Sequence record: MN850651.1 | Strand: one strand, 5' to 3' | Length of the DNA: 64,000 nucleotides | Source: Escherichia phage moskry | Shown here: positions 41,079 through 49,451 of the stretch, in pieces | Layout of the letters: every line of letters starts with the position of its first letter | Numbering within the stretch: the stretch's first letter is position 1 | The notes under the pieces: generated by a model | The model's database searches: none | Told to the model about the DNA's origin: nothing | Seen by the model: the letters and a program-made list of their open reading frames with translations, nothing else | Position numbers and translations under genes: made by a program

Positions 41079-41265
41079 AATCCACAATCGGGAGCAAAGT
41101 ACGATAAACTTCAAAATTAGGGCCTTTTTCGTACGTATCAAAATTGTCCATAAAAATATTATAGGAATCGTTATTAGGAAAATCTAATATAATCTGAGAG
41201 CAAGAGGTGGAAACATCACCACCGTCTTTATTAGCGACAACTACTGTTTCTAAATAAGCTTTCAT
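41077..41265 (-). CDS. Hypothetical small protein
   Basis: Start taken at the ATG overlapping the ligase stop (TAATG); terminator hairpin downstream. Confidence 0.4.
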   Translation of the reverse strand: MKAYLETVVVANKDGGDVSTSCSQIILDFPNNDSYNIFMDNFDTYEKGPNFEVYRTLLPIVD

Positions 41266-42758
41266 TATAAACCTGTCTGGGACCACGGTCCAAATACGTC
41301 TTCAAATGAATCCGCTTCTGTTTTATCAAAACGGAACCCTTTAATAATTGGAAGGAAAATACCTACAGTACCTTCACGGCCTTTAGAATGAACCCAACCG
41401 TTACATTCACAATCAGCGATACGTCCAATTAATTTACCTTCACGAGCTTCGGTCATTAATCGTTCACGGTCTAAATCATGACGCTCGTCTAAAGGAATAA
41501 GAACCTTTACACCGTCAACTGTTTTATGAGTTGTATCTTTAAAACCTGAACCACAATCGGTTGTAATACGACGACAACGTGATACGAGTTCGACACCACC
41601 TAATTTGTTAGGGTCTTTAGAGTGTTCATAGTATCCTACAACTTCTAAAGCGATATCAATAACTTCTTTAAATTTAATTAGGTTCTTAGAGCGTTTGTTT
41701 TCCCAATATGAATCACGGTTTTTAAGGATAATACCTTCAAGACCTTGGTCAACATATTTTTTATAAACCACTTTAGCTTCGTCAAGATTACGAACTAACT
41801 GATTTTCAATTGGCTCAATTCGCTTAAAGCCTTCAGCCATATTTTCAAGAGCAGCAAAACGAACATCGTATTTCTGACCTTTAATTTTGCCATCAGAATA
41901 GACTTCATCTAAAGGAACATAGTCCCAGGCTTGAAGAACCATACCTTCCGCTTCTTTAGGAGAAATAGTCCCTTGAAGAGATTTATTTGCTAAACCATTT
42001 GAAGTGCTACGGTCTGCAACCTGTACTTCTTCGGATTCTTCATTATCACCAAATAAGAACGACAGGTCATTTCCTGAGCTCACGGCCTTTTTAATATCAA
42101 ATGAATGATAAACTAATTCACCGTCGATTAAAACCCCATTAGGGTGTCTTTCACGAGCTTCTTTAGTCATTTCCATTAGTTCATCCGCTAATAGAGTAAG
42201 ACCATGGTATTCATTACCAGCACGAGAAAAGAATTGAACACCATCATCGCGAACTTCAGCGAAACAACGAGCACCATCGGCTTTTAATTGAGCAAATGCA
42301 GGCCATTTAATATTTTTAGTAATCAATTTCTCATCATATGCAGATGCTAACATCTGTGGTTGCAATTGAATAAGACCAGGCCATACCTTATTCGCGATAG
42401 ACACTGAAGCACCTACTTCAAGGTCTCGCATCATTACACGGCGTAGTACTTCAACATCATCAGGTTTACCGTCGGCGATATAACCCATGAGCTCTTTAAT
42501 TGCTGCATTACCAGTGAGTTTACGAGTGGCCAATGTGAACTCAATAAAATCCAACATGTCATCTAATTCAAGAAGGCCATACGCTTGAGACCTTTCACCT
42601 GGCCCAGGCCATTTCTTAATATAATACTGAATGCCACGTGCATACGTTAAACGATATACACGTTCAAGTAATTTGTTGTCCTTATTTTTCTTAAGGATTT
42701 CCTGTTTTGTTTTAGTAGAACCGATCGCAGCTATTTGGTTTAAAATATCTAAAATCAT
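41265..42758 (-). CDS. 30: ATP-dependent DNA ligase gp30
   Basis: 497 aa; N-terminus matches T4 ligase; adenylation motif KADGARC. Confidence 0.95.
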   Translation of the reverse strand: MILDILNQIAAIGSTKTKQEILKKNKDNKLLERVYRLTYARGIQYYIKKWPGPGERSQAYGLLELDDMLDFIEFTLATRKLTGNAAIKELMGYIADGKPDDVEVLRRVMMRDLEVGASVSIANKVWPGLIQLQPQMLASAYDEKLITKNIKWPAFAQLKADGARCFAEVRDDGVQFFSRAGNEYHGLTLLADELMEMTKEARERHPNGVLIDGELVYHSFDIKKAVSSGNDLSFLFGDNEESEEVQVADRSTSNGLANKSLQGTISPKEAEGMVLQAWDYVPLDEVYSDGKIKGQKYDVRFAALENMAEGFKRIEPIENQLVRNLDEAKVVYKKYVDQGLEGIILKNRDSYWENKRSKNLIKFKEVIDIALEVVGYYEHSKDPNKLGGVELVSRCRRITTDCGSGFKDTTHKTVDGVKVLIPLDERHDLDRERLMTEAREGKLIGRIADCECNGWVHSKGREGTVGIFLPIIKGFRFDKTEADSFEDVFGPWSQTGL

Positions 42759-43024
42759 TTGATATCCTCGATTTTGGTTACGGTTCTATTATAAGCCACT
42801 TCATCTAGAAGCGATTTCAGCGTTTTCTGATAAGTGGTAATCCATTTACCGAGTCCTTCAACATAATATTCTGAAATGTAGATGAACCCTTGTTCAACAC
42901 ACTCTTTAAATATTTCTGCGTCTTTTACTGAACGAAACACCGGCCAGTCTCGAAAGAACATGTTAACATGACCGTAGTCACGCGTTGTGTTTTTGCCATC
43001 TGTAATATCATGAACTACAAACAT
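42755..43024 (-). CDS. Hypothetical protein (30.1-like position)
   Basis: 89-aa ORF coupled to gene 30. Confidence 0.5.
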   Translation of the reverse strand: MFVVHDITDGKNTTRDYGHVNMFFRDWPVFRSVKDAEIFKECVEQGFIYISEYYVEGLGKWITTYQKTLKSLLDEVAYNRTVTKIEDIK

Positions 43025-43033
43025 AATTAGCCC

Positions 43034-43849
43034 TTAACAATTTATAGACCAAGTCCATTTAGACGAATCTAAAGGAAAGTTTTGAATCGTCCACCATGGC
43101 TGCATATCGGTTGGTCCTGGGGTTCGCCAGGTATACGGATTCGACGGAGCGCCGATTTGATTAGGCCATGCGCCTGGACTTGTTGCACCAGATTCTTTAA
43201 GCAAATCTGCCAATCGTTTTAAAAGGTCTTCACGATCTGAATCTGAATTATGCTCTGGCGGAACCAATCGAGATTCAATATCATCCCACGTGTGTACACG
43301 TTGTGCAGTACGAGGAATGGCATCACGTTCACCACGAGCCAACCAATAAATTGGTACATTAAGAATTTCTGCTGCATGGTCACAGTGATGAGCTAAATCG
43401 TCAACGTAACAAATCACGTTATATTTTGTTTTAGCTAGTTCAAATAATTGTTCCTTTGAAGAATCATGACCACACATCATTACTTCAGAGAAAGCGCCTG
43501 GGAACAAAGCATTCAAATTAAATTGTCTATTCAATCTAGCATCAATTGAATCACCTAGCGCCGTCACGGCTACAAAATTATAGTCTTCTTTTAGTTTATT
43601 GATAACTCGAAGAGCATCCGAATAAGGCGCTAAGTAACGAATAAAATCAGAGCTATTATATTTTTCTATTAATTGTTTACCAAGGTTATCGTCGGTATTG
43701 AACAGTTTACCAGGAGAAATAAATTTTTCGTCCTGAATCATTTTTAAAATATGTTCTAATGGAAGATTATATTTTTGGGCAAAATAAGGAAGTCCAGATT
43801 GCCAGCTTAAACATACACCATCAATATCAGTCAAAATAGTAGGCTTCAT
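43034..43849 (-). CDS. Putative HAD-like hydrolase (30.2-like position)
   Basis: 271 aa; N-terminal DIDGV resembles HAD motif I; Trp/Pro-rich C-terminal tail. Confidence 0.45.
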   Translation of the reverse strand: MKPTILTDIDGVCLSWQSGLPYFAQKYNLPLEHILKMIQDEKFISPGKLFNTDDNLGKQLIEKYNSSDFIRYLAPYSDALRVINKLKEDYNFVAVTALGDSIDARLNRQFNLNALFPGAFSEVMMCGHDSSKEQLFELAKTKYNVICYVDDLAHHCDHAAEILNVPIYWLARGERDAIPRTAQRVHTWDDIESRLVPPEHNSDSDREDLLKRLADLLKESGATSPGAWPNQIGAPSNPYTWRTPGPTDMQPWWTIQNFPLDSSKWTWSINC

Positions 43850-44313
43850 AAAGAGTCTCTTAATAGGTTTAACACATCAATAAATTCAGCTTCGGTTAAT
43901 ATTGTATCATCTTTTGTTAGGTGGCTGGCCATGCTGTGCTTCAAAATTTTTCCTTTCGAAGCCTGTAATGCATCACGAAAGCCTTTGTTTTGGATCGCGG
44001 CTTCAAAATATGCATTTGTGTATAATTCTTTCCACGCTTCAGAGTATCTTGAAAATGGAACTCCTAACCAGAAGAGAGTCCCATGGTCCTGAGCTCTTGC
44101 ATAAGACCTTCCGGCTTGCTGTGCGGCCAGTCCTGACAGCCCAAATATACGTCTTTGTTGTTCAACATTTTTCACCTTACATCCTTGGAGAAATCCTTCA
44201 AGACCTCCGAATTGAATACCATCCATAACGAAAGGCCACTGGGCAAAATTACTTAATGCACATGACGGCCATCTAAAATTGCTTCTAATCTCTAACTCAG
44301 ACATCTTTAACAC
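43846..44313 (-). CDS. NADAR (YbiA/DUF1768)-like protein (30.3-like position)
   Basis: 155 aa; ALSNFAQWPFVMDGIQFGGLEGFLQGCKV resembles the YbiA core FSNFAAWP..DG..SEHYFQAQKF. Confidence 0.5.
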   Translation of the reverse strand: MLKMSELEIRSNFRWPSCALSNFAQWPFVMDGIQFGGLEGFLQGCKVKNVEQQRRIFGLSGLAAQQAGRSYARAQDHGTLFWLGVPFSRYSEAWKELYTNAYFEAAIQNKGFRDALQASKGKILKHSMASHLTKDDTILTEAEFIDVLNLLRDSL

Positions 44314-44509
44314 TTATAATTTCAACATCAGCCCAATGTCCATAAGCCGGTAGACGGTCTTTGATAGATAATCCACCGTCATATTTCAGCATTTTAATTG
44401 TTTTAGTATATGGTTCAACTTTTCGGGCCCATGGGCTTACATCAGTCACACGATACGTAACTTCAATCATTTCCATACCAAACAATTTCTGGATTAATTT
44501 ATTCAACAT
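44297..44509 (-). CDS. Hypothetical protein
   Basis: 70-aa ORF in an overlapping early operon. Confidence 0.4.
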   Translation of the reverse strand: MLNKLIQKLFGMEMIEVTYRVTDVSPWARKVEPYTKTIKMLKYDGGLSIKDRLPAYGHWADVEIISVKDV

Positions 44510-44696
44510 GTTTCAACCCTTTAATAGGAGATAACTCTTTACCCATACGTATGTCAGAAGTCCAATCAACCCATTGAACAGCATACGCTTCATTGATAAT
44601 TCCAGCGGCGGTTTTAAATTCAGGGAGAACTTTAAAAATCACCCCAGGAATTCCAACACCTTTTAATTGGACTGTTTGTGCTATTAAAAATTTCAT
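44499..44696 (-). CDS. Hypothetical protein
   Basis: 65-aa ORF; weak early promoter upstream. Confidence 0.4.
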   Translation of the reverse strand: MKFLIAQTVQLKGVGIPGVIFKVLPEFKTAAGIINEAYAVQWVDWTSDIRMGKELSPIKGLKHVE

Positions 44697-44720
44697 ATTT
44701 TTCCACTTACTAAAGAAATC

Positions 44721-44751
44721 GTTATACTCTAATCCGTTCTTGGATGTAAAC
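44721..44751 (-). promoter_or_regulatory. Weak candidate early promoter
   Basis: GTTTAC-N19-TATAAC; non-consensus -10 and long spacer. Confidence 0.3.
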
Positions 44752-45365
44752 TACTTAACGAAATTAATTTCTACCGGATGAACAACAGGTTGAGCAGTGA
44801 TATATTGAGTAATTGCTTTCATGACTAGAGCTTCAGAACCAGGATTTTTCTCAACGAATTCACGTGCTTGGTTATGGGCTTCAAGTTCACTTAGTAAACC
44901 GGAACGTTGGCATCCACGGTCTTGAGTACCCTGTTCAGATAAAAAGACGACTATGTATTTTTCATCGTCATACGGTTTAGACGGTTGAGCAAATGTTCCT
45001 TTACTTCCAAAAGGAGAGTTATGACGCCACATCACGCCGTGAGGAGTTTCAACCTTCGTATATTCGTGCGGGCCATTTTTCTTAGTTTCTTGATGTGGAA
45101 CTTCGTGGACCTTAGGGTTAGGACATTCAATAAAATGCTCATCTAAATCGGTCGAGAATATTAAAGTAAAACAATTACTAAATTTACCAACACCTGCCTG
45201 ATAAATTTTACCTTCAGAAGTTCTAATTTCACAAACTGAGCCAGCATCAGTAACTTCTAAAACTTCAAAAGGCTCGATAAGGTCATATGAGAACATGTTT
45301 TTAAGGCGTGGAGTAATATCCCCATTTTTAAAATTCATTTTATAAAAAGTATTAACTTTAAACAT
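44751..45365 (-). CDS. Hypothetical protein
   Basis: 204 aa; RBS GAGGA; UUCG hairpin immediately upstream. Confidence 0.5.
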   Translation of the reverse strand: MFKVNTFYKMNFKNGDITPRLKNMFSYDLIEPFEVLEVTDAGSVCEIRTSEGKIYQAGVGKFSNCFTLIFSTDLDEHFIECPNPKVHEVPHQETKKNGPHEYTKVETPHGVMWRHNSPFGSKGTFAQPSKPYDDEKYIVVFLSEQGTQDRGCQRSGLLSELEAHNQAREFVEKNPGSEALVMKAITQYITAQPVVHPVEINFVK

Positions 45366-45400
45366 AATTTCCTCAATGGGAGCCGAAGCTCCCAGTTAAA

Positions 45401-45766
45401 TTAGATATCAAATTCGTTAAGAACTACATCAAAGATTGCTTCGAGATGTTCAGGTTTAGCTCGGTTACTCAGGATATGACGAATCCAAGTTTTAACCAGA
45501 AGTTTACGATTAACACCATTCCAGCAAGGATGAGTACCTAAATCACGTTGACGGAAATCATCATCTAATGCAATTTTGAAGTTGGAACCTTCCATTGTGA
45601 TTGAAACCGTGATGCCATTTTCAAATCGCATATAAACATAATTAGGAGTCATATACTGCTCAATTTCACATACTGAACCATTTTTATGCTTCCACAAACA
45701 AACCATATCGATAGAACCAGCGATACCGTTAGAAACATATTTGCGTTCGAAGTTGGTGTAGTTCAT
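45401..45766 (-). CDS. Hypothetical protein
   Basis: 121 aa; RBS GGAG; own early promoter at 45808-45836. Confidence 0.5.
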   Translation of the reverse strand: MNYTNFERKYVSNGIAGSIDMVCLWKHKNGSVCEIEQYMTPNYVYMRFENGITVSITMEGSNFKIALDDDFRQRDLGTHPCWNGVNRKLLVKTWIRHILSNRAKPEHLEAIFDVVLNEFDI

Positions 45767-45807
45767 TTTATTCTCCAGATGTTTAAGTTGTTTGTTGGTA
45801 CAGGTCT

Positions 45808-45836
45808 ATAATAACATAACCTGTACCAAAGTAAAC
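45808..45836 (-). promoter_or_regulatory. Early promoter for ORF 45401-45766
   Basis: GTTTAC-N17-TATTAT; -10 sits in the loop of a 10-bp inverted repeat. Confidence 0.55.
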
Positions 45837-45840
45837 TGTT

Positions 45841-46209
45841 TTATGCAACTTTAATCCAATTGTCTAAATTTAAAACACCTTTGGCTTTCATTTTTTCGAT
45901 CAGGTTATCTGCTGTAATGCGTCCATTTTGATACCATGTAACATCTTCAGAGTAACCAGTTTCTTCGTCAACATATGTTTCTGAACGAATTTTACCGGTA
46001 ATAATAGTTTTTAATTCGTATGTGTCGCCTGTGAAAAAGTTTGCTAACACAATTTTCCAAGAGAAATCATCAGAAGGACCTTCAGGGGTCATACAACCTA
46101 CGAACTCAAATTGCTCTTTGTATAACATCCACTGGAATTCTTTAATTTCGATAGCTTTATAACCGTCATGGTCTTTACATTTGATGTATGAGTTCAGATT
46201 GATTTTCAT
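45841..46209 (-). CDS. Hypothetical protein
   Basis: 122 aa; RBS GGAG; own early promoter at 46251-46280. Confidence 0.5.
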   Translation of the reverse strand: MKINLNSYIKCKDHDGYKAIEIKEFQWMLYKEQFEFVGCMTPEGPSDDFSWKIVLANFFTGDTYELKTIITGKIRSETYVDEETGYSEDVTWYQNGRITADNLIEKMKAKGVLNLDNWIKVA

Positions 46210-46250
46210 TTTATTCTCCGATTGTTTTATTGATTAGGTGGTACAAGTCT

Positions 46251-46280
46251 ATAGTAACACCATCCTACAGGATAGTAAAC
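46251..46280 (-). promoter_or_regulatory. Early promoter for ORF 45841-46209
   Basis: GTTTAC-N18-TACTAT. Confidence 0.55.
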
Positions 46281-46311
46281 ATCTTTTTTAAACTTTTTCT
46301 GCCCTAAACGC

Positions 46312-46335
46312 ACAAAAGGGAGACCGAAGTCTCCC
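46312..46335 (-). terminator. Terminator after the 59-aa basic ORF
   Basis: Hairpin GGGAGACuucgGUCUCCC followed by UUUUGUG on the - strand. Confidence 0.6.
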
Positions 46336-46340
46336 TAAAA

Positions 46341-46520
46341 TTATGCAACAACCTTTCCAAAACGAGAAGCATCATCTCGAAGAACTGCACGTGCTCTGCG
46401 CATGATCTTCTCAACTGTTTGATTAATACGAGAGTTCGACCCACGCTTGTATCCAGCGCGTTTAGAGGTACCATCAACTTTCTTTTCAACTGCTTTCTTT
46501 GCTTTAGCTTGTTTTGCCAT
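46341..46520 (-). CDS. Small basic 59-aa protein, absent from the ORF track
   Basis: Hand translation MAKQAKAKKAVEKKVDGTSKRAGYKRGSNSR...; ends just before terminator hairpin 46318-46335; the ORF-track alternative runs through the hairpin. Confidence 0.4.
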   Translation of the reverse strand: MAKQAKAKKAVEKKVDGTSKRAGYKRGSNSRINQTVEKIMRRARAVLRDDASRFGKVVA

Positions 46521-46677
46521 TATAAATTCTCTTTAAATGAAAATGCAGGACTTATTGACATTGCCTGCGCAAGCCCTCAAGGGGAACATAGGTTTTGGAT
46601 ATTTAACGACAGGATAACCATAAACCTCGTCATCATACCAACCACGACTTAGACAGATAACCTTTTTCTGACGCGTG

Positions 46678-46706
46678 ATAGTATAAAATACATTCAAGAG
46701 GTACAC
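46678..46706 (-). promoter_or_regulatory. Candidate early promoter inside the rIII-30.9 non-coding region
   Basis: GTGTAC-N17-TACTAT, about 155 nt upstream of the 59-aa ORF. Confidence 0.4.
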
Positions 46707-46816
46707 CGTAAAACTGCCGGGGTCTTAAAACTATAATGATTCGCAAATCATTAATCAGACAGTTCGACGGCTCCTCGATTTTCTAGCCGCACTTAAGGTA
46801 GCGAATCACCTAAAAC

Positions 46817-47065
46817 TTATTTAAGGGTGATAACAAAATGACGTACTGCTTTACGAGCTGCAGAAGCCAAAGGCTTAGCATATTTCAGTTCATCTTTTGC
46901 TTCCAGTTCAGAAGCCAAAGCTGCCTGTACCGGGTTCAGATGTTTGAAATATCGCAGGATTTCAAGAGCTTCGGCTTCAACATCAATAGATGCGCCATAG
47001 TTTTCGTGGCCGTTATTCCATGCGTTTCGTTGCAGTTCAAGAGCGTGTTGTAATTGTTTAATCAT
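46817..47065 (-). CDS. rIII: Putative lysis-inhibition accessory protein rIII
   Basis: 82 aa as in T4 rIII; lies between the 30.x island and gene 31. Confidence 0.6.
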   Translation of the reverse strand: MIKQLQHALELQRNAWNNGHENYGASIDVEAEALEILRYFKHLNPVQAALASELEAKDELKYAKPLASAARKAVRHFVITLK

Positions 47066-47181
47066 TTTAAATTCTCAATTCGAGATAATATTTAGTAGCC
47101 ACGTTCGTCTGAATTTCACTTCCTTTCGACAAGTCTCTCAGTTGTAGGCTACCGCTTAGAAGAGTGTTCTCTTCATATAGT

Positions 47182-47189
47182 TATTTATA
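47182..47189 (-). promoter_or_regulatory. Candidate late promoter for rIII
   Basis: Reverse-strand TATAAATA immediately after the gene 31 stop, about 120 nt upstream of rIII. Confidence 0.4.
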
Positions 47190-47522
47190 TCACTTATAAA
47201 GACACGGAATAGCTTTATAGTGGCATGTTACGAATTTCTGTTTAATTTCTTTAGGATGTTTAAGTCCCAAAGCCACAAATGGATGTGGAACATTTCGAAT
47301 TTGTCCAACTGGTAGTGGAGTCAAATCACCGACTTCAACAAAACCTTTAGGAACATCAGGACCTACAGAATGAACTACACATAGTTCAGGAACTTCACCT
47401 TGAACACGTTTACCAATCACAAGTCCTGATTCGGTAACTTCTTCATCACCTGCTTGAGCGGGTTCAGAAACCAGAATAACATATTCACCAACAGCACGAA
47501 TTGGGAGTTGTACTTCAGACAT
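47190..47522 (-). CDS. 31: Co-chaperonin gp31 (GroES analogue)
   Basis: 110 aa; near-identical to T4 gp31; MotA-box middle promoter upstream. Confidence 0.95.
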
Positions 47523-47552
47523 CTTATTTCCTTGTTGTTTGACGATAGATTA

Positions 47553-47577
47553 ATAATACCATACTATTCGTAAAGCA
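47553..47577 (-). promoter_or_regulatory. MotA-dependent middle promoter for gene 31
   Basis: MotA box TGCTTTA, 12-nt spacer, -10 TATTAT; RBS AAGGA. Confidence 0.6.
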
Positions 47578-47579
47578 TA

Positions 47580-47888
47580 TTACATAAGAAGCAAACGTTC
47601 TACTGGAGTACCATCAACCGAAATTACTTTATCAAGGCGGAAAGAACGCCACTGACCTAACTCGGTATCGAATGCTCGAACTGATTCACGAGGTTCAGAA
47701 CGAACTTCTGTTGATGGGTTACTATTTTCATATTTGACTTCAAGTTCATCGCGGGAGGCAAACATCGTACGAACATCACCGTTAGCCTTTTCAAATACAA
47801 CACAATGAACGCCTACAGACAGAATAGTTTTAATACGTTCACGAAGAACCATAGTTTCTCGTTCAGTTAAAATCATATTATTCACCAC
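47580..47888 (-). CDS. Hypothetical protein (31.1-like position)
   Basis: 102-aa ORF upstream of gene 31. Confidence 0.5.
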   Translation of the reverse strand: MVNNMILTERETMVLRERIKTILSVGVHCVVFEKANGDVRTMFASRDELEVKYENSNPSTEVRSEPRESVRAFDTELGQWRSFRLDKVISVDGTPVERLLLM

Positions 47889-48459
47889 AAAAGTTTCGGA
47901 TTTGTTCCCAATTCAGAGAACGAAGATTATTACGAGAGTACTGAATTACTTCAATACCGGCTTGTTTTAGAATGTCGGCCCAATTTTCAGGAGATCTGTC
48001 ATATAATTCCGCGTATACAACCTTTTTAATACCTGACTGCGTAATAGCTTTAGTGCAATCAGGACACGGAGAAAGCGTAGTATATAACGTAGCACCTTCA
48101 ATAGAATTACCTTTACGAGCTGCAAACAAAATTGCGTTCAGTTCCGCATGGATTTCGTTATTAGCAGACCATGCACTATGAGCGGCCCGATGTTCTTTAG
48201 CCAAAACAAAATTATCCACCCGTCCAAATGCTGTAGTGCCTTCTTTATGCCCAGCAACGATGACCGGGCTTGGTTTATTCTTCAACCAACCGTTTTCGGA
48301 TGCATGTTCACAACAGTTAACACCACCGGCCGGGCTACCGTTATACCCAGTAGAAATAATGCGCCCATCTTTTTCAATGACGGCACCAACTTTCCATGAA
48401 CAACATTTTGATTCTTGAGAAATCAGATATGCAATCTGAAGGTATGTGCTAGCTTTCAT
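47878..48459 (-). CDS. cd: dCMP deaminase
   Basis: 193 aa as in T4; zinc-binding deaminase motifs HAELNAI and SPCPDC. Confidence 0.9.
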   Translation of the reverse strand: MKASTYLQIAYLISQESKCCSWKVGAVIEKDGRIISTGYNGSPAGGVNCCEHASENGWLKNKPSPVIVAGHKEGTTAFGRVDNFVLAKEHRAAHSAWSANNEIHAELNAILFAARKGNSIEGATLYTTLSPCPDCTKAITQSGIKKVVYAELYDRSPENWADILKQAGIEVIQYSRNNLRSLNWEQIRNFCGE

Positions 48460-49451
48460 TATTGAACCTTATTAATATAAGTTAACAGCTCTTTAGTTTG
48501 TTCCCAACTGATGCACGCATCGGTAACGGAAACGCCATAGGACATATTATCAGAAATTTTTTGATTTCCTTCATGTAGGAATGATTCTATCATAATTCCT
48601 TTGACCAAATCATTAGCTGCTAAATTTTTACCAATACCAATTTGATTGCTATAATGCCCATCAGCGTTTGCATGGCTACAGTCAACCATTACATAATGAT
48701 TCAGACCTACTGCACTTGCTTTGTTAGAAGCTTCTTGAATATCAGAAGAATGATAGTTCGGGCCGTTGGTCCCGCCACGCAATACGATATGCGTATTCTG
48801 ATTACCTTCAGCTTCAACAATGCCTACAGTACCATCGACGTCCATACCCATATACCGATGAGGCCAGGCGGCACTATACATCGCGTCTGTAGCTACTTTA
48901 ATAGAACCATTGGTTGCGTTCTTGAAGCCTACGCACATCGGTAGACCTGAAGCAATTTCACGATGTGTCTGACTTTCAGTCGTACGGGCGCCAATAGCAA
49001 CCCATGAGAAAATACCAGAAAGATACTTAATCGTGAATGGGTCTAATACTTCAGTTGCTAATGGAAGTCCCATACGTAGAAGTTTACGACACAATGTTCG
49101 TGCAACTATAAGACCGTGGTTCATATCAAAACTTCCGTCAAGATATGGATCATTTACAAGACCTTTCCAACCTACGGTAGTTCGAGGCTTTTCAAAATAA
49201 ACGCGCATCACTAACAGAACATTAGGAAGACGAGTTTGAAGTTCAGCCAAACGTTTGCCGTATTCAACAGCAGCAATAGGGTCATGAATTGAACAAGGAC
49301 CTACAACAATAAGTTTGCGTGGGTCTTCACCGTTCATAATCGAATTAACTTGTTCGCGATGAGAAGCCACTTGTGATGCGTAAGCTTCCGACAAAGGAAT
49401 AATCTCAGCCAGTTCTTTTGGAGAAATAAGTTTTCCGACGACAGGTAACAT
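48459..49451 (-). CDS. 3-deoxy-D-arabino-heptulosonate 7-phosphate (DAHP) synthase, type I-alpha (AroF/AroG/AroH family)
   Basis: 330 aa; motifs GPCSIHD, VMRVYFEKPRTTVGWKGL, GARTTESQTHRE, ILRGG, DCSHAN, ESFLHEGNQ, YGVSVTDACISWE; metal ligands Cys/His/Glu/Asp and PEP-binding Lys/Arg conserved; RBS AAGGA. Confidence 0.85.
   Translation of the reverse strand: MLPVVGKLISPKELAEIIPLSEAYASQVASHREQVNSIMNGEDPRKLIVVGPCSIHDPIAAVEYGKRLAELQTRLPNVLLVMRVYFEKPRTTVGWKGLVNDPYLDGSFDMNHGLIVARTLCRKLLRMGLPLATEVLDPFTIKYLSGIFSWVAIGARTTESQTHREIASGLPMCVGFKNATNGSIKVATDAMYSAAWPHRYMGMDVDGTVGIVEAEGNQNTHIVLRGGTNGPNYHSSDIQEASNKASAVGLNHYVMVDCSHANADGHYSNQIGIGKNLAANDLVKGIMIESFLHEGNQKISDNMSYGVSVTDACISWEQTKELLTYINKVQ

Follow-up and report, generated by a model that had tools for sequence, protein, structure and literature searches.

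The subject of this study is a 2.2 kb block (positions 44297-46520) of Escherichia phage moskry (sequence record MN850651.1), lying between the DNA ligase gene and rIII in the 64,000-nucleotide (nt) stretch that was analysed and is referred to below as the window. The block holds six complete open reading frames (ORFs) of 70, 65, 204, 121, 122 and 59 amino acids (aa), all on the minus strand. Read leftward, they are 30.9 (46341-46520, minus; 59 aa, very basic), 30.8 (45841-46209, minus; 122 aa), 30.7 (45401-45766, minus; 121 aa), 30.6A (44751-45365, minus; 204 aa), 30.5 (44499-44696, minus; 65 aa) and 30.4 (44297-44509, minus; 70 aa). The last of these shares 11 nt with the end of 30.5 and 8 nt (ATGTCTGA) with the start of 30.3. 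On one side of the block lie 30.3, 30.2, 30.1 and the DNA ligase gene itself (gene 30, 41265-42758, minus); on the other, rIII (46817-47065, minus) is followed by gene 31 (Cpn10 fold), 31.1, dCMP deaminase and DAHP synthase. The ligase-to-rIII interval contains nine genes in total, all on the minus strand, in the order and orientation found in T4, RB69, JS98 and SP18. The block is the T4-type 30.4-30.9 segment of the pre-replicative genes between gene 30 and rIII, already named in the T4, RB69 and TuIa records. At the nucleotide level it is 97.9% identical to Escherichia phage 308Ecol101PP and 96-97% identical to HX01, JS09 and other RB69-like T4-type phages (Mosigvirus), and it matches 757 phage records in all; by its sequence the source phage is an RB69-like T4-type phage of the genus Mosigvirus.

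Comparison with T4 proteins by BLASTP gives expectation values (E) of 2e-20 for 30.4, 6e-27 for 30.5, 1e-90 for 30.7, 9e-18 for 30.8 and 4e-34 for 30.9, with identities of 47%, 64% (over the full length), 95%, 36-37% and 96%, respectively. The 204-aa protein is different. It occupies the slot of T4 30.6 (95 aa), yet BLASTP finds no similarity to T4 gp30.6 or to any other T4 protein, and the two fall into separate PHROG families (phrog_2153 for T4 30.6, phrog_17531 for the window protein), so that it does not qualify as a 30.6 orthologue. It is 98% identical to TuIa gp30.6A and had already been deposited under that name (AJ621579). Two proteins exceed Pfam gathering thresholds, namely 30.7 (PF06919, Phage_T4_Gp30_7, E 1.8e-52) and 30.8 (PF06019, Phage_30_8, E 6.7e-44); no Pfam family was found for 30.4, 30.5, 30.6A or 30.9. 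All six have PHROG matches (among them phrog_1427 for 30.9, E 2.4e-31, phrog_1690 for 30.5 and phrog_2042 for 30.4), and every family is one of unknown function. The original prediction, made from the letters of the window, had described seven unknown ORFs of 59-204 aa with no recognisable motifs. The ORFs are real, but six are complete and the seventh, 30.3, reaches into the block by 8 nt; they belong to a named gene cluster and have recognisable families, although it is right that none of these families has an assigned function.

The ratio of non-synonymous to synonymous divergence (dN/dS) against T4, RB69 and NBG1 lies between 0.04 and 0.43 across the six genes wherever synonymous divergence is measurable, and on this basis all six can be taken to be real protein-coding genes under purifying selection. 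It might be supposed that the region is a non-coding regulatory spacer in which some of the small ORFs arose by chance, given that three are 59-70 aa long, that 30.4, 30.5, 30.6A and 30.9 lack a Pfam family and that the DNA is A+T-rich. Every ORF, however, has homologues in 120 to >1000 phages with the frame kept, dN/dS is well below 1 for each, and expression of the T4 30.5 protein allowed a specific host partner to be pulled down, so that this explanation is effectively refuted.

The early-promoter pattern GTTTAC-N16-19-TAnnnT occurs exactly 12 times in the window against 3.7 expected, and 0 of 100 shuffles reach 12. Two exact copies only fall within the block, before 30.8 (P30.8: GTTTAC 46280-46275, 18-nt spacer, TACTAT 46256-46251, minus) and before 30.7 (P30.7: GTTTAC 45836-45831, 17-nt spacer, TATTAT 45813-45808, minus). 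Both align with the window's other early promoters and have the make-up of T4-type early promoters, including the A-rich upstream region. Eight relatives, belonging to at least six genera, have the same GTTTAC...TAnnnT arrangement shortly before 30.7 (T4, RB69, SP18 and NBG1, and T4-like phages of Klebsiella, Salmonella, Aeromonas and Citrobacter), and it precedes 30.8 in T4, NBG1 and a Klebsiella phage. A degenerate copy precedes 30.5 (44721-44751, minus; GTTTAC 44751-44746, 19-nt spacer, TATAAC 44726-44721); the G of its GTTTAC is the last base of the 30.6A stop codon, and its spacer exceeds by one base the length most often seen among the window's exact matches (18). The -10 box reads TATAAT in NBG1, SA79RD and TuIa, whose records annotate this promoter, and the T-to-C change affects the most conserved -10 position; it may weaken independent transcription of 30.5, 30.4 and 30.3. 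No early promoter of their own was found for 30.9, 30.6A and 30.4, and no MotA-type middle promoter lies inside the block, which is flanked by sites equivalent to the T4 middle promoters P30 (42788-42812) and P31 (47553-47576). A generic sigma-70 scan of 42700-47600, which is not tuned to T4 promoters and misses UUCG hairpins, showed no enrichment (15 promoter-like sites against 15.8 expected and 1 terminator-like site against 2.9).

Three genes have strong ribosome-binding sites, 30.8 and 30.7 with GGAG and the 204-aa gene with GAGG; those of 30.9 (AAGAG), 30.5 (GTGGA) and 30.4 (AAGGG) are modest. The original prediction of private GTTTAC-N17/18-TAnnnT promoters and strong ribosome-binding sites is thus correct as to the pattern, which is real and enriched, and as to three of the ribosome-binding sites; its 'several' promoters come down to two or three, and a layout of one promoter per gene does not hold, since six genes share two exact promoters and one degenerate one, with none at the other three.

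Three hairpins punctuate the block. A predicted terminator follows 30.9 (46306-46336, minus), with the stem AGGGAGAC/GUCUCCCU, a UUCG loop (hairpin 46336-46317) and a U-rich tail; its folding energy is -14.7 kcal/mol (z -4.46), a value that 0 of 200 shuffles attained. An equivalent UUCG hairpin with a U run follows 30.9 in T4, and the records of NBG1 and SA79RD annotate a terminator here. A second stem-loop overlies P30.7 (45795-45836, minus), where UUGGUACAGG (45829-45820) pairs with CCUGUACCAA (45804-45795) at -17.4 kcal/mol (z -4.67, again matched by 0 of 200 shuffles); T4 shares both this promoter and this stem. Its 3' arm lies at or slightly past the predicted transcription start, so that the whole hairpin would form only in transcripts that read through from upstream. 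P30.8 has no significant stem-loop (z -0.16), with a separate terminator hairpin about 35 nt upstream. The third hairpin lies between 30.7 and 30.6A (45378-45393, minus; GGGAGC-UUCG-GCUCCC, -14.1 kcal/mol, z -3.36) and has no U tract. The GAGG Shine-Dalgarno sequence of 30.6A (45374-45371) is directly 3' of it and nothing else precedes the gene; in T4 the equivalent position, before 30.6, is taken by another hairpin (GGGGCUUCAGCCCC).

The Shine-Dalgarno regions of 30.7 and 30.8 read GGAGAATAAAATG. In T4, the 11-nt consensus for efficient cleavage by RegB with S1 is GGAGAAUAAAA, with the general form GGAGRAYARAA (PMC1702504), and a target was defined here as this consensus in an intergenic leader, where it usually forms the Shine-Dalgarno sequence. 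Exact copies, both GGAGAATAAAA and both Shine-Dalgarno sequences, are found at 30.8 (46209-46219, minus) and at 30.7 (45766-45776, minus); the window holds only three in all. The early transcript of T4 30.7 is a documented RegB substrate, cut at GGAG in the Shine-Dalgarno region, and the rIII protein binds ribosomal protein S1 and modulates RegB (PMC9409239). The early messages of 30.7 and 30.8 are probably switched off by RegB, since both carry the exact target in their Shine-Dalgarno sequences. The RegB site of T4 30.7 is reportedly traced to work of Truncaite et al. in Virology in 2006 (PMID 16225899), said to deal with the transcription and RNA processing of genes that precede ligase gene 30.

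Two 55-nt direct repeats, 80% identical (45762-45816 and 46205-46259, minus), flank 30.8, each spanning the -10 box, the leader, the Shine-Dalgarno sequence and the start codon. In TuIa, which lacks 30.8, a 30.8-type cassette is joined straight to the 30.7 coding sequence at the common GGAGAATAAAATGAA, which is the outcome that recombination between the two cassettes would be expected to give. The 35-nt spacer between 30.7 and 30.6A, comprising the hairpin and the Shine-Dalgarno sequence, is 100% identical in RB69 even though a different gene follows there. According to the early-promoter/stem-loop (PeSL) model for T4-type phages, repeated cassettes of this kind mediate modular shuffling (PMC2839356, PMC4122927). 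The repeats described here do flank small genes and coincide with insertion/deletion joints; a stem-loop over the promoter is found in the 30.7 cassette (-17.4 kcal/mol, z -4.67), and that of the 30.8 cassette is not significant (z -0.16).

Presence of the genes was counted by tblastn in 50,697 phage records. The counts are 1118 for rIII, 1037 for 30.8, 1006 for 30.9, 996 for 30.7, 735 for 30.5, 721 for 30.4 and 120 for 30.6A. Thus three of the six genes, 30.7, 30.8 and 30.9, are near-universal among rIII-carrying T4-like phages (about 90%), and they range over T4-like phages of Escherichia, Klebsiella, Enterobacter, Yersinia, Salmonella and Aeromonas. Their rates of change differ: 838 of the 1006 records of 30.9 are at >=90% identity, whereas 635 of 1037 for 30.8, like 456 of 721 for 30.4, fall below 60%. 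The 30.7 gene has a dN/dS of 0.04 and 37 invariant alignment columns. The highest dN/dS of the block (0.29-0.43) belongs to 30.4, which is 73-76% identical to NBG1 and SA79RD, phages that otherwise match at 97-100%. The fast-diverging 30.8 falls into deep allele classes that cut across genera; identity to the window allele is 100% in NBG1, 86% in SP18, which belongs to another genus, and 76% in a Klebsiella phage, but 57% in RB69, a member of the same genus, and 36-37% in T4. Gene content also differs between relatives, at two places, in that RB69 has 30.6 and lacks 30.5 and 30.6A, TuIa has 30.6A and lacks 30.8 and 30.4, and SP18 keeps 30.6 and has an additional stand-alone copy of the 30.6A C-terminal module between 30.9 and 30.8.

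Relative to T4, the essential ligase gene is 63-67% identical with synonymous divergence (dS) of about 2, which is saturated; 30.2 is likewise saturated (dS about 2) and 30.1 is saturated beyond estimation. By comparison, 30.3, 30.7, 30.9 and rIII are 92-97% identical with dS of 0.22-0.73. This low dS implies that the latter cassettes diverged from their T4 counterparts later than the ligase backbone did, a pattern consistent with inter-lineage exchange. Judged from these comparisons, the block is a mosaic and not uniformly hypervariable, with 30.7, 30.9 and 30.8 (as a slot) serving as anchors and with 30.4, 30.6/30.6A and the 30.8 alleles being swappable or fast.

As to what the proteins do, published evidence exists for one gene of the block and for its immediate neighbour. 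T4 30.5 co-purifies with the host polyphosphate kinase (Ppk), an interaction that also held in the reciprocal pull-down, and T4 has three activators of the defence protein bNACHT11, of which 30.5 is one (bioRxiv 10.1101/2024.12.17.629029). T4 30.3 is AdfN, a NADAR ADP-ribosylglycohydrolase that removes the DarT1 ADP-ribose from DNA; it is necessary and sufficient against DarTG1, and RB69, whose copy is truncated by a frameshift, is sensitive (bioRxiv 10.1101/2024.07.11.602962). In the window 30.3/adfN (43846-44304, minus; 152 aa; PF08010, E 2.7e-69) shares no more than the 8-nt overlap with the block. It is 97% identical to T4 over 152 aa and keeps Glu36 and the full C-terminal helix that is absent in RB69, so that the phage is predicted to be resistant to DarTG1, unlike RB69. 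The listed ORF begins with a GTG at 44313, and comparison with T4 points to the ATG at 44304 as the true start.

For 30.4, 30.6, 30.6A, 30.8 and 30.9 we found no functional report in the literature searched, and 30.7 appears there only as a RegB substrate. Sequence searches of the PDB with all six proteins returned nothing below E 0.1, there was no match to NCBIfam or PADLOC, and the Lys/Arg-rich 30.9 (59 aa) has neither a Pfam nor a PDB match. The homology to characterised housekeeping proteins that would have spoken against the original prediction was likewise absent from Pfam, NCBIfam, PADLOC and PDB sequence searches. The structure-based searches it called for, made with 30.6A and 30.7, yielded no function. 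The AlphaFold2 (AF2) model of 30.7 has a predicted local distance difference test (pLDDT) score of 74, with seven strands and two C-terminal helices, and its fold search gave no informative match; that of 30.6A has a pLDDT of 59, and its best Foldseek match against the PDB (E 0.2) is meaningless. Three weak resemblances were rejected as chance: 30.8 to the VbhA antitoxin (E 0.07, below the cut-off and with the motif absent), the N-terminal module of 30.6A to the KDM4A Tudor domain (E 0.16) and 30.7 to a levanase carbohydrate-binding module (E 0.1).

The 30.6A protein consists of two modules, an N-terminal one (about residues 1-90) and a C-terminal one (about 95-195). The former is remote kin of phrog_8920/622/3710, which include proteins encoded after 30.7 in Klebsiella and Aeromonas phages, and the latter is also found by itself, in proteins of 118-152 aa that share a conserved GTQDRGCQRSGL motif. 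A word-indexed search of 5.8 billion proteins recovered only the protein's own cluster; an exhaustive HMMER search of 1.8 billion representatives gave 8 matches that revealed the modules and carried no annotation. A separate observation concerns P0021, a 154-aa protein from a metagenome contig in which residues 1-77 of 30.7 are fused in frame to the C-terminal half of 30.3. The junction is a short 'D-x-G-T' motif common to both, implying either a deletion between 30.7 and 30.3 or an assembly artefact.

The spacer between rIII and 30.9 (46521-46816, minus) constitutes the 5' leader of 30.9. Blocks that are near-identical in T4, RB69, SP18 and JS98 make it up, with insertions and deletions between them, its length varying from 163 nt (NBG1) to about 400 nt (SP18), and the final ~120 nt before the 30.9 start are common to nearly all relatives. 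The best promoter candidate for 30.9 is TTTACG-N16-TATTTT near 46685-46712, which T4 lacks. A hairpin pairs GCAGG (46568-46564) with CCTGC (46549-46545) on the minus strand around a conserved loop, CAAUGUCAAUAAGU; by visual alignment the stem appears to covary in Salmonella phage STP4-a (CTGG/CCAG), but the computed consensus fold does not contain that helix. The consensus RNA structure of the last ~120 nt before 30.9 was unconvincing across divergent phages, and no credible Rfam family was found in the region, the spacer or related loci. We considered the near-identity of the spacer to T4 as a sign of a functional RNA and set this aside, as it is mostly explained by the low dS of the flanking genes.

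A different element occurs in the corresponding spacer of other T4-like phages and is absent from the window, T4, RB69 and NBG1. This conserved non-coding element of ~135 nt is present in 407 phage records, in essentially one copy each, lies mostly under no annotated feature and has no Rfam match. The fold predicted by RNAalifold from 7 sequences has 45 base pairs, with compensatory double changes at 11, and several G-U pairs suggest an RNA on the strand of the genes; the element looks like an undescribed structured RNA. It was located in SP18 (L005:1901-2035), JS98 (L008:2559-2693), Klebsiella phage kv_tblp5 (L009:1484-1618), Aeromonas phage PS49 (L011:1761-1892) and four further loci (L012:401-532, L013:401-535, L014:401-535 and L015:401-537).

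We consider it probable (about 0.85) that these observations describe the 30.4-30.9 block of a Mosigvirus phage, organised in short early units, subject to RegB shut-off, encoding products that act on the host, and shaped by mosaic evolution. The six genes, all read leftward, would form a few short transcription units of early type. The first, 30.9, would be reached by transcription that crosses the conserved rIII-30.9 leader and stops at the UUCG-loop terminator, and 30.8 would be transcribed from its own strong early promoter. The second early promoter would serve 30.7 and 30.6A, with the overlapping stem-loop able to cap or attenuate 30.8 transcripts that read through. Expression of 30.5, 30.4 and 30.3 onward would depend on the weakened promoter or on read-through, with translational coupling through overlapping stop and start codons, and translation of 30.7 and 30.8 would probably be ended by RegB a few minutes into infection. 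The products would be non-structural accessory proteins acting on the host, as shown in T4 for 30.5 and 30.3/AdfN; by analogy with these two, we infer that the others, too, act early and bind host components. In evolution, conserved cassettes (30.3, 30.7, 30.9, rIII) would alternate with fast-changing or swappable slots (30.4, 30.6/30.6A and the 30.8 alleles), the repeats of promoter, leader and Shine-Dalgarno sequence acting as recombination joints as in the PeSL model.

Several points weigh against this reading. Of the two cassettes only that of 30.7 is a textbook PeSL, the one at 30.8 having no significant stem-loop of its own. The rIII-30.9 spacer contains no exact early promoter that could serve 30.9, and with its TATAAC -10 box the 30.5 unit may depend on read-through. 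The promoter and terminator roles are assigned from sequence, conservation and papers on T4 and TuIa. Window 30.5 is 64% identical to the T4 protein that was tested, and a host-directed role for 30.4, 30.6A, 30.7, 30.8 and 30.9 is extrapolated by analogy, with mediocre AF2 models and unusable fold searches. The low dS of the conserved cassettes could in part reflect constraint at the nucleotide level and not recent exchange.

The original prediction was of a hypervariable island of single-gene modules, each with a private promoter, in which anti-host and counter-defence genes accumulate. Its modular layout of small, non-structural genes of early type is borne out, and the spacing of promoters, which lie several times as densely as in the window at large (2-3 in 2.2 kb, compared with 12 in 64 kb), the difference in gene content among T4, RB69, TuIa, SP18 and the source phage, the fast divergence of 30.4 and 30.8 and the published defence-related roles of 30.3 and 30.5 all speak in its favour. 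The comparison of gene content among T4-like phages that had been proposed as a check showed differences between RB69, TuIa, SP18 and T4, and the 30.6 slot has been swapped. Hypervariability nevertheless does not extend to the block as a whole, as 30.7, 30.8 and 30.9 occur in ~90% of rIII-carrying phages and 30.7 and 30.9 are 95-96% identical to T4; exact promoters precede two of the six genes, and the three without one are coupled to the gene upstream. Anti-host or counter-defence activity is published for T4 30.5 and for the neighbouring 30.3, but none was found in the literature searched for 30.4, 30.6A, 30.7, 30.8 or 30.9. In this full form the idea is unlikely. An opposite emphasis would see 30.7, 30.9 and perhaps 30.8 as accessories of the early programme, such as RNA-, ribosome- or DNA-associated regulators, that help infection in any host and have no part in counter-defence. 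Near-universal presence across T4-like phages of many hosts and strong purifying selection on 30.7, which has many invariant His, Arg, Lys and Glu residues, would suit such a role, as would the Lys/Arg-rich composition of 30.9, typical of nucleic-acid binders, and the adjoining rIII protein, which binds S1 and modulates RegB (PMC9409239). No homology or fold match supports it, however, and AdfN is equally conserved and widespread yet is a counter-defence enzyme, so that conservation does not discriminate between a regulator and a counter-defence protein; we regard this alternative, too, as doubtful.

With the mosaic early block as the preferred reading, the block is one that is annotated in hundreds of phages, is only partly variable and consists of genes whose functions are mostly unassigned; current understanding of T4-type phages is unchanged by these results. 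They do provide a corrected map, with promoters, terminator and RegB sites placed, for a region that annotation pipelines usually label as six hypothetical proteins. The conserved 30.7 and 30.9 are suited to the study of a general function, and 30.4, 30.8 and 30.6A to host- or defence-specific study. What retains value are the uncharacterised, highly conserved 30.7 and 30.9 and the lineage-restricted 30.6A. Two tentative proposals, less likely than not, are that 30.7 and/or 30.9 are host-takeover or counter-defence effectors of new fold and, separately, that 30.6A is a recently assembled two-module effector.

Some neighbouring genes deserve mention. The DAHP synthase gene (48459-49451, minus; 330 aa; PF00793, E 7e-75) adjoins dCMP deaminase and encodes the first enzyme of aromatic amino-acid synthesis. 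It is present at that place in NBG1 and SA79RD and not in T4 or RB69, and looks like an auxiliary metabolic gene of the Mosigvirus lineage. The 30.2 protein (43034-43849, minus; 271 aa) has a weak haloacid-dehalogenase-like match (PF13419, E 0.013) that is below the cut-off, a DxDG-type motif (TDIDGV) at its start and a C-terminal stretch of about 20 residues that does not align with T4 gp30.2. The 31.1 protein (47580-47888, minus; 102 aa) matches PF10902 (WYL_2, an Sm-like SH3 beta-barrel; E 4.5e-10) and is wrongly annotated as a tail fibre protein in some relatives.

Compared with individual proteins of known activity, the 65-aa ORF is the orthologue of T4 gp30.5, at the same position and 64% identical over its full length, and binding to Ppk or bNACHT11 has been shown for the T4 allele only. 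The 30.3 gene, immediately downstream of 30.4 and translationally coupled to it, keeps the catalytic Glu36 and the C-terminal helix of AdfN (T4 gp30.3), an orphan NADAR enzyme, but it lies outside the block except for 8 nt, and none of the six ORFs resembles AdfN.

Among named phages, T4 (30.4-30.9, NC_000866) agrees with the window in the position, strand, order and approximate sizes of the genes, in the early promoters before 30.8 and 30.7, in the stem-loop in P30.7, in a hairpin after 30.7 and in the UUCG terminator after 30.9. It differs in that 30.6 (95 aa) is replaced in the window by the unrelated 30.6A with a promoter-like spacer, the window 30.8 allele comes from another deep lineage and the rIII-30.9 spacer has an extra block of ~60 nt. 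The 30.7/30.6A/30.5 segment of TuIa (AJ621579) is closely alike (98% identity for 30.6A, 92% for 30.7 and 95% for 30.5), including the hairpin after 30.7 and the promoter before 30.5, both annotated by the depositors; it lacks 30.8 and 30.4, and its P30.5 has an intact TATAAT in place of TATAAC. Like the cassettes of the block, the PeSL units described by Arbiol et al. 2010 (PMC2839356) and Comeau et al. 2014 (PMC4122927) are repeats of ~55-100 nt that combine a strong early promoter of sigma-70 type with a stem-loop (between the -35 and -10 boxes or over them), a Shine-Dalgarno sequence and a start codon; they lie on either side of small genes of unknown function, at insertion/deletion joints between relatives. 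The block departs from that description in that the genes flanked are mostly widespread and not orphans, and in that the 30.7 cassette alone carries a significant stem-loop.

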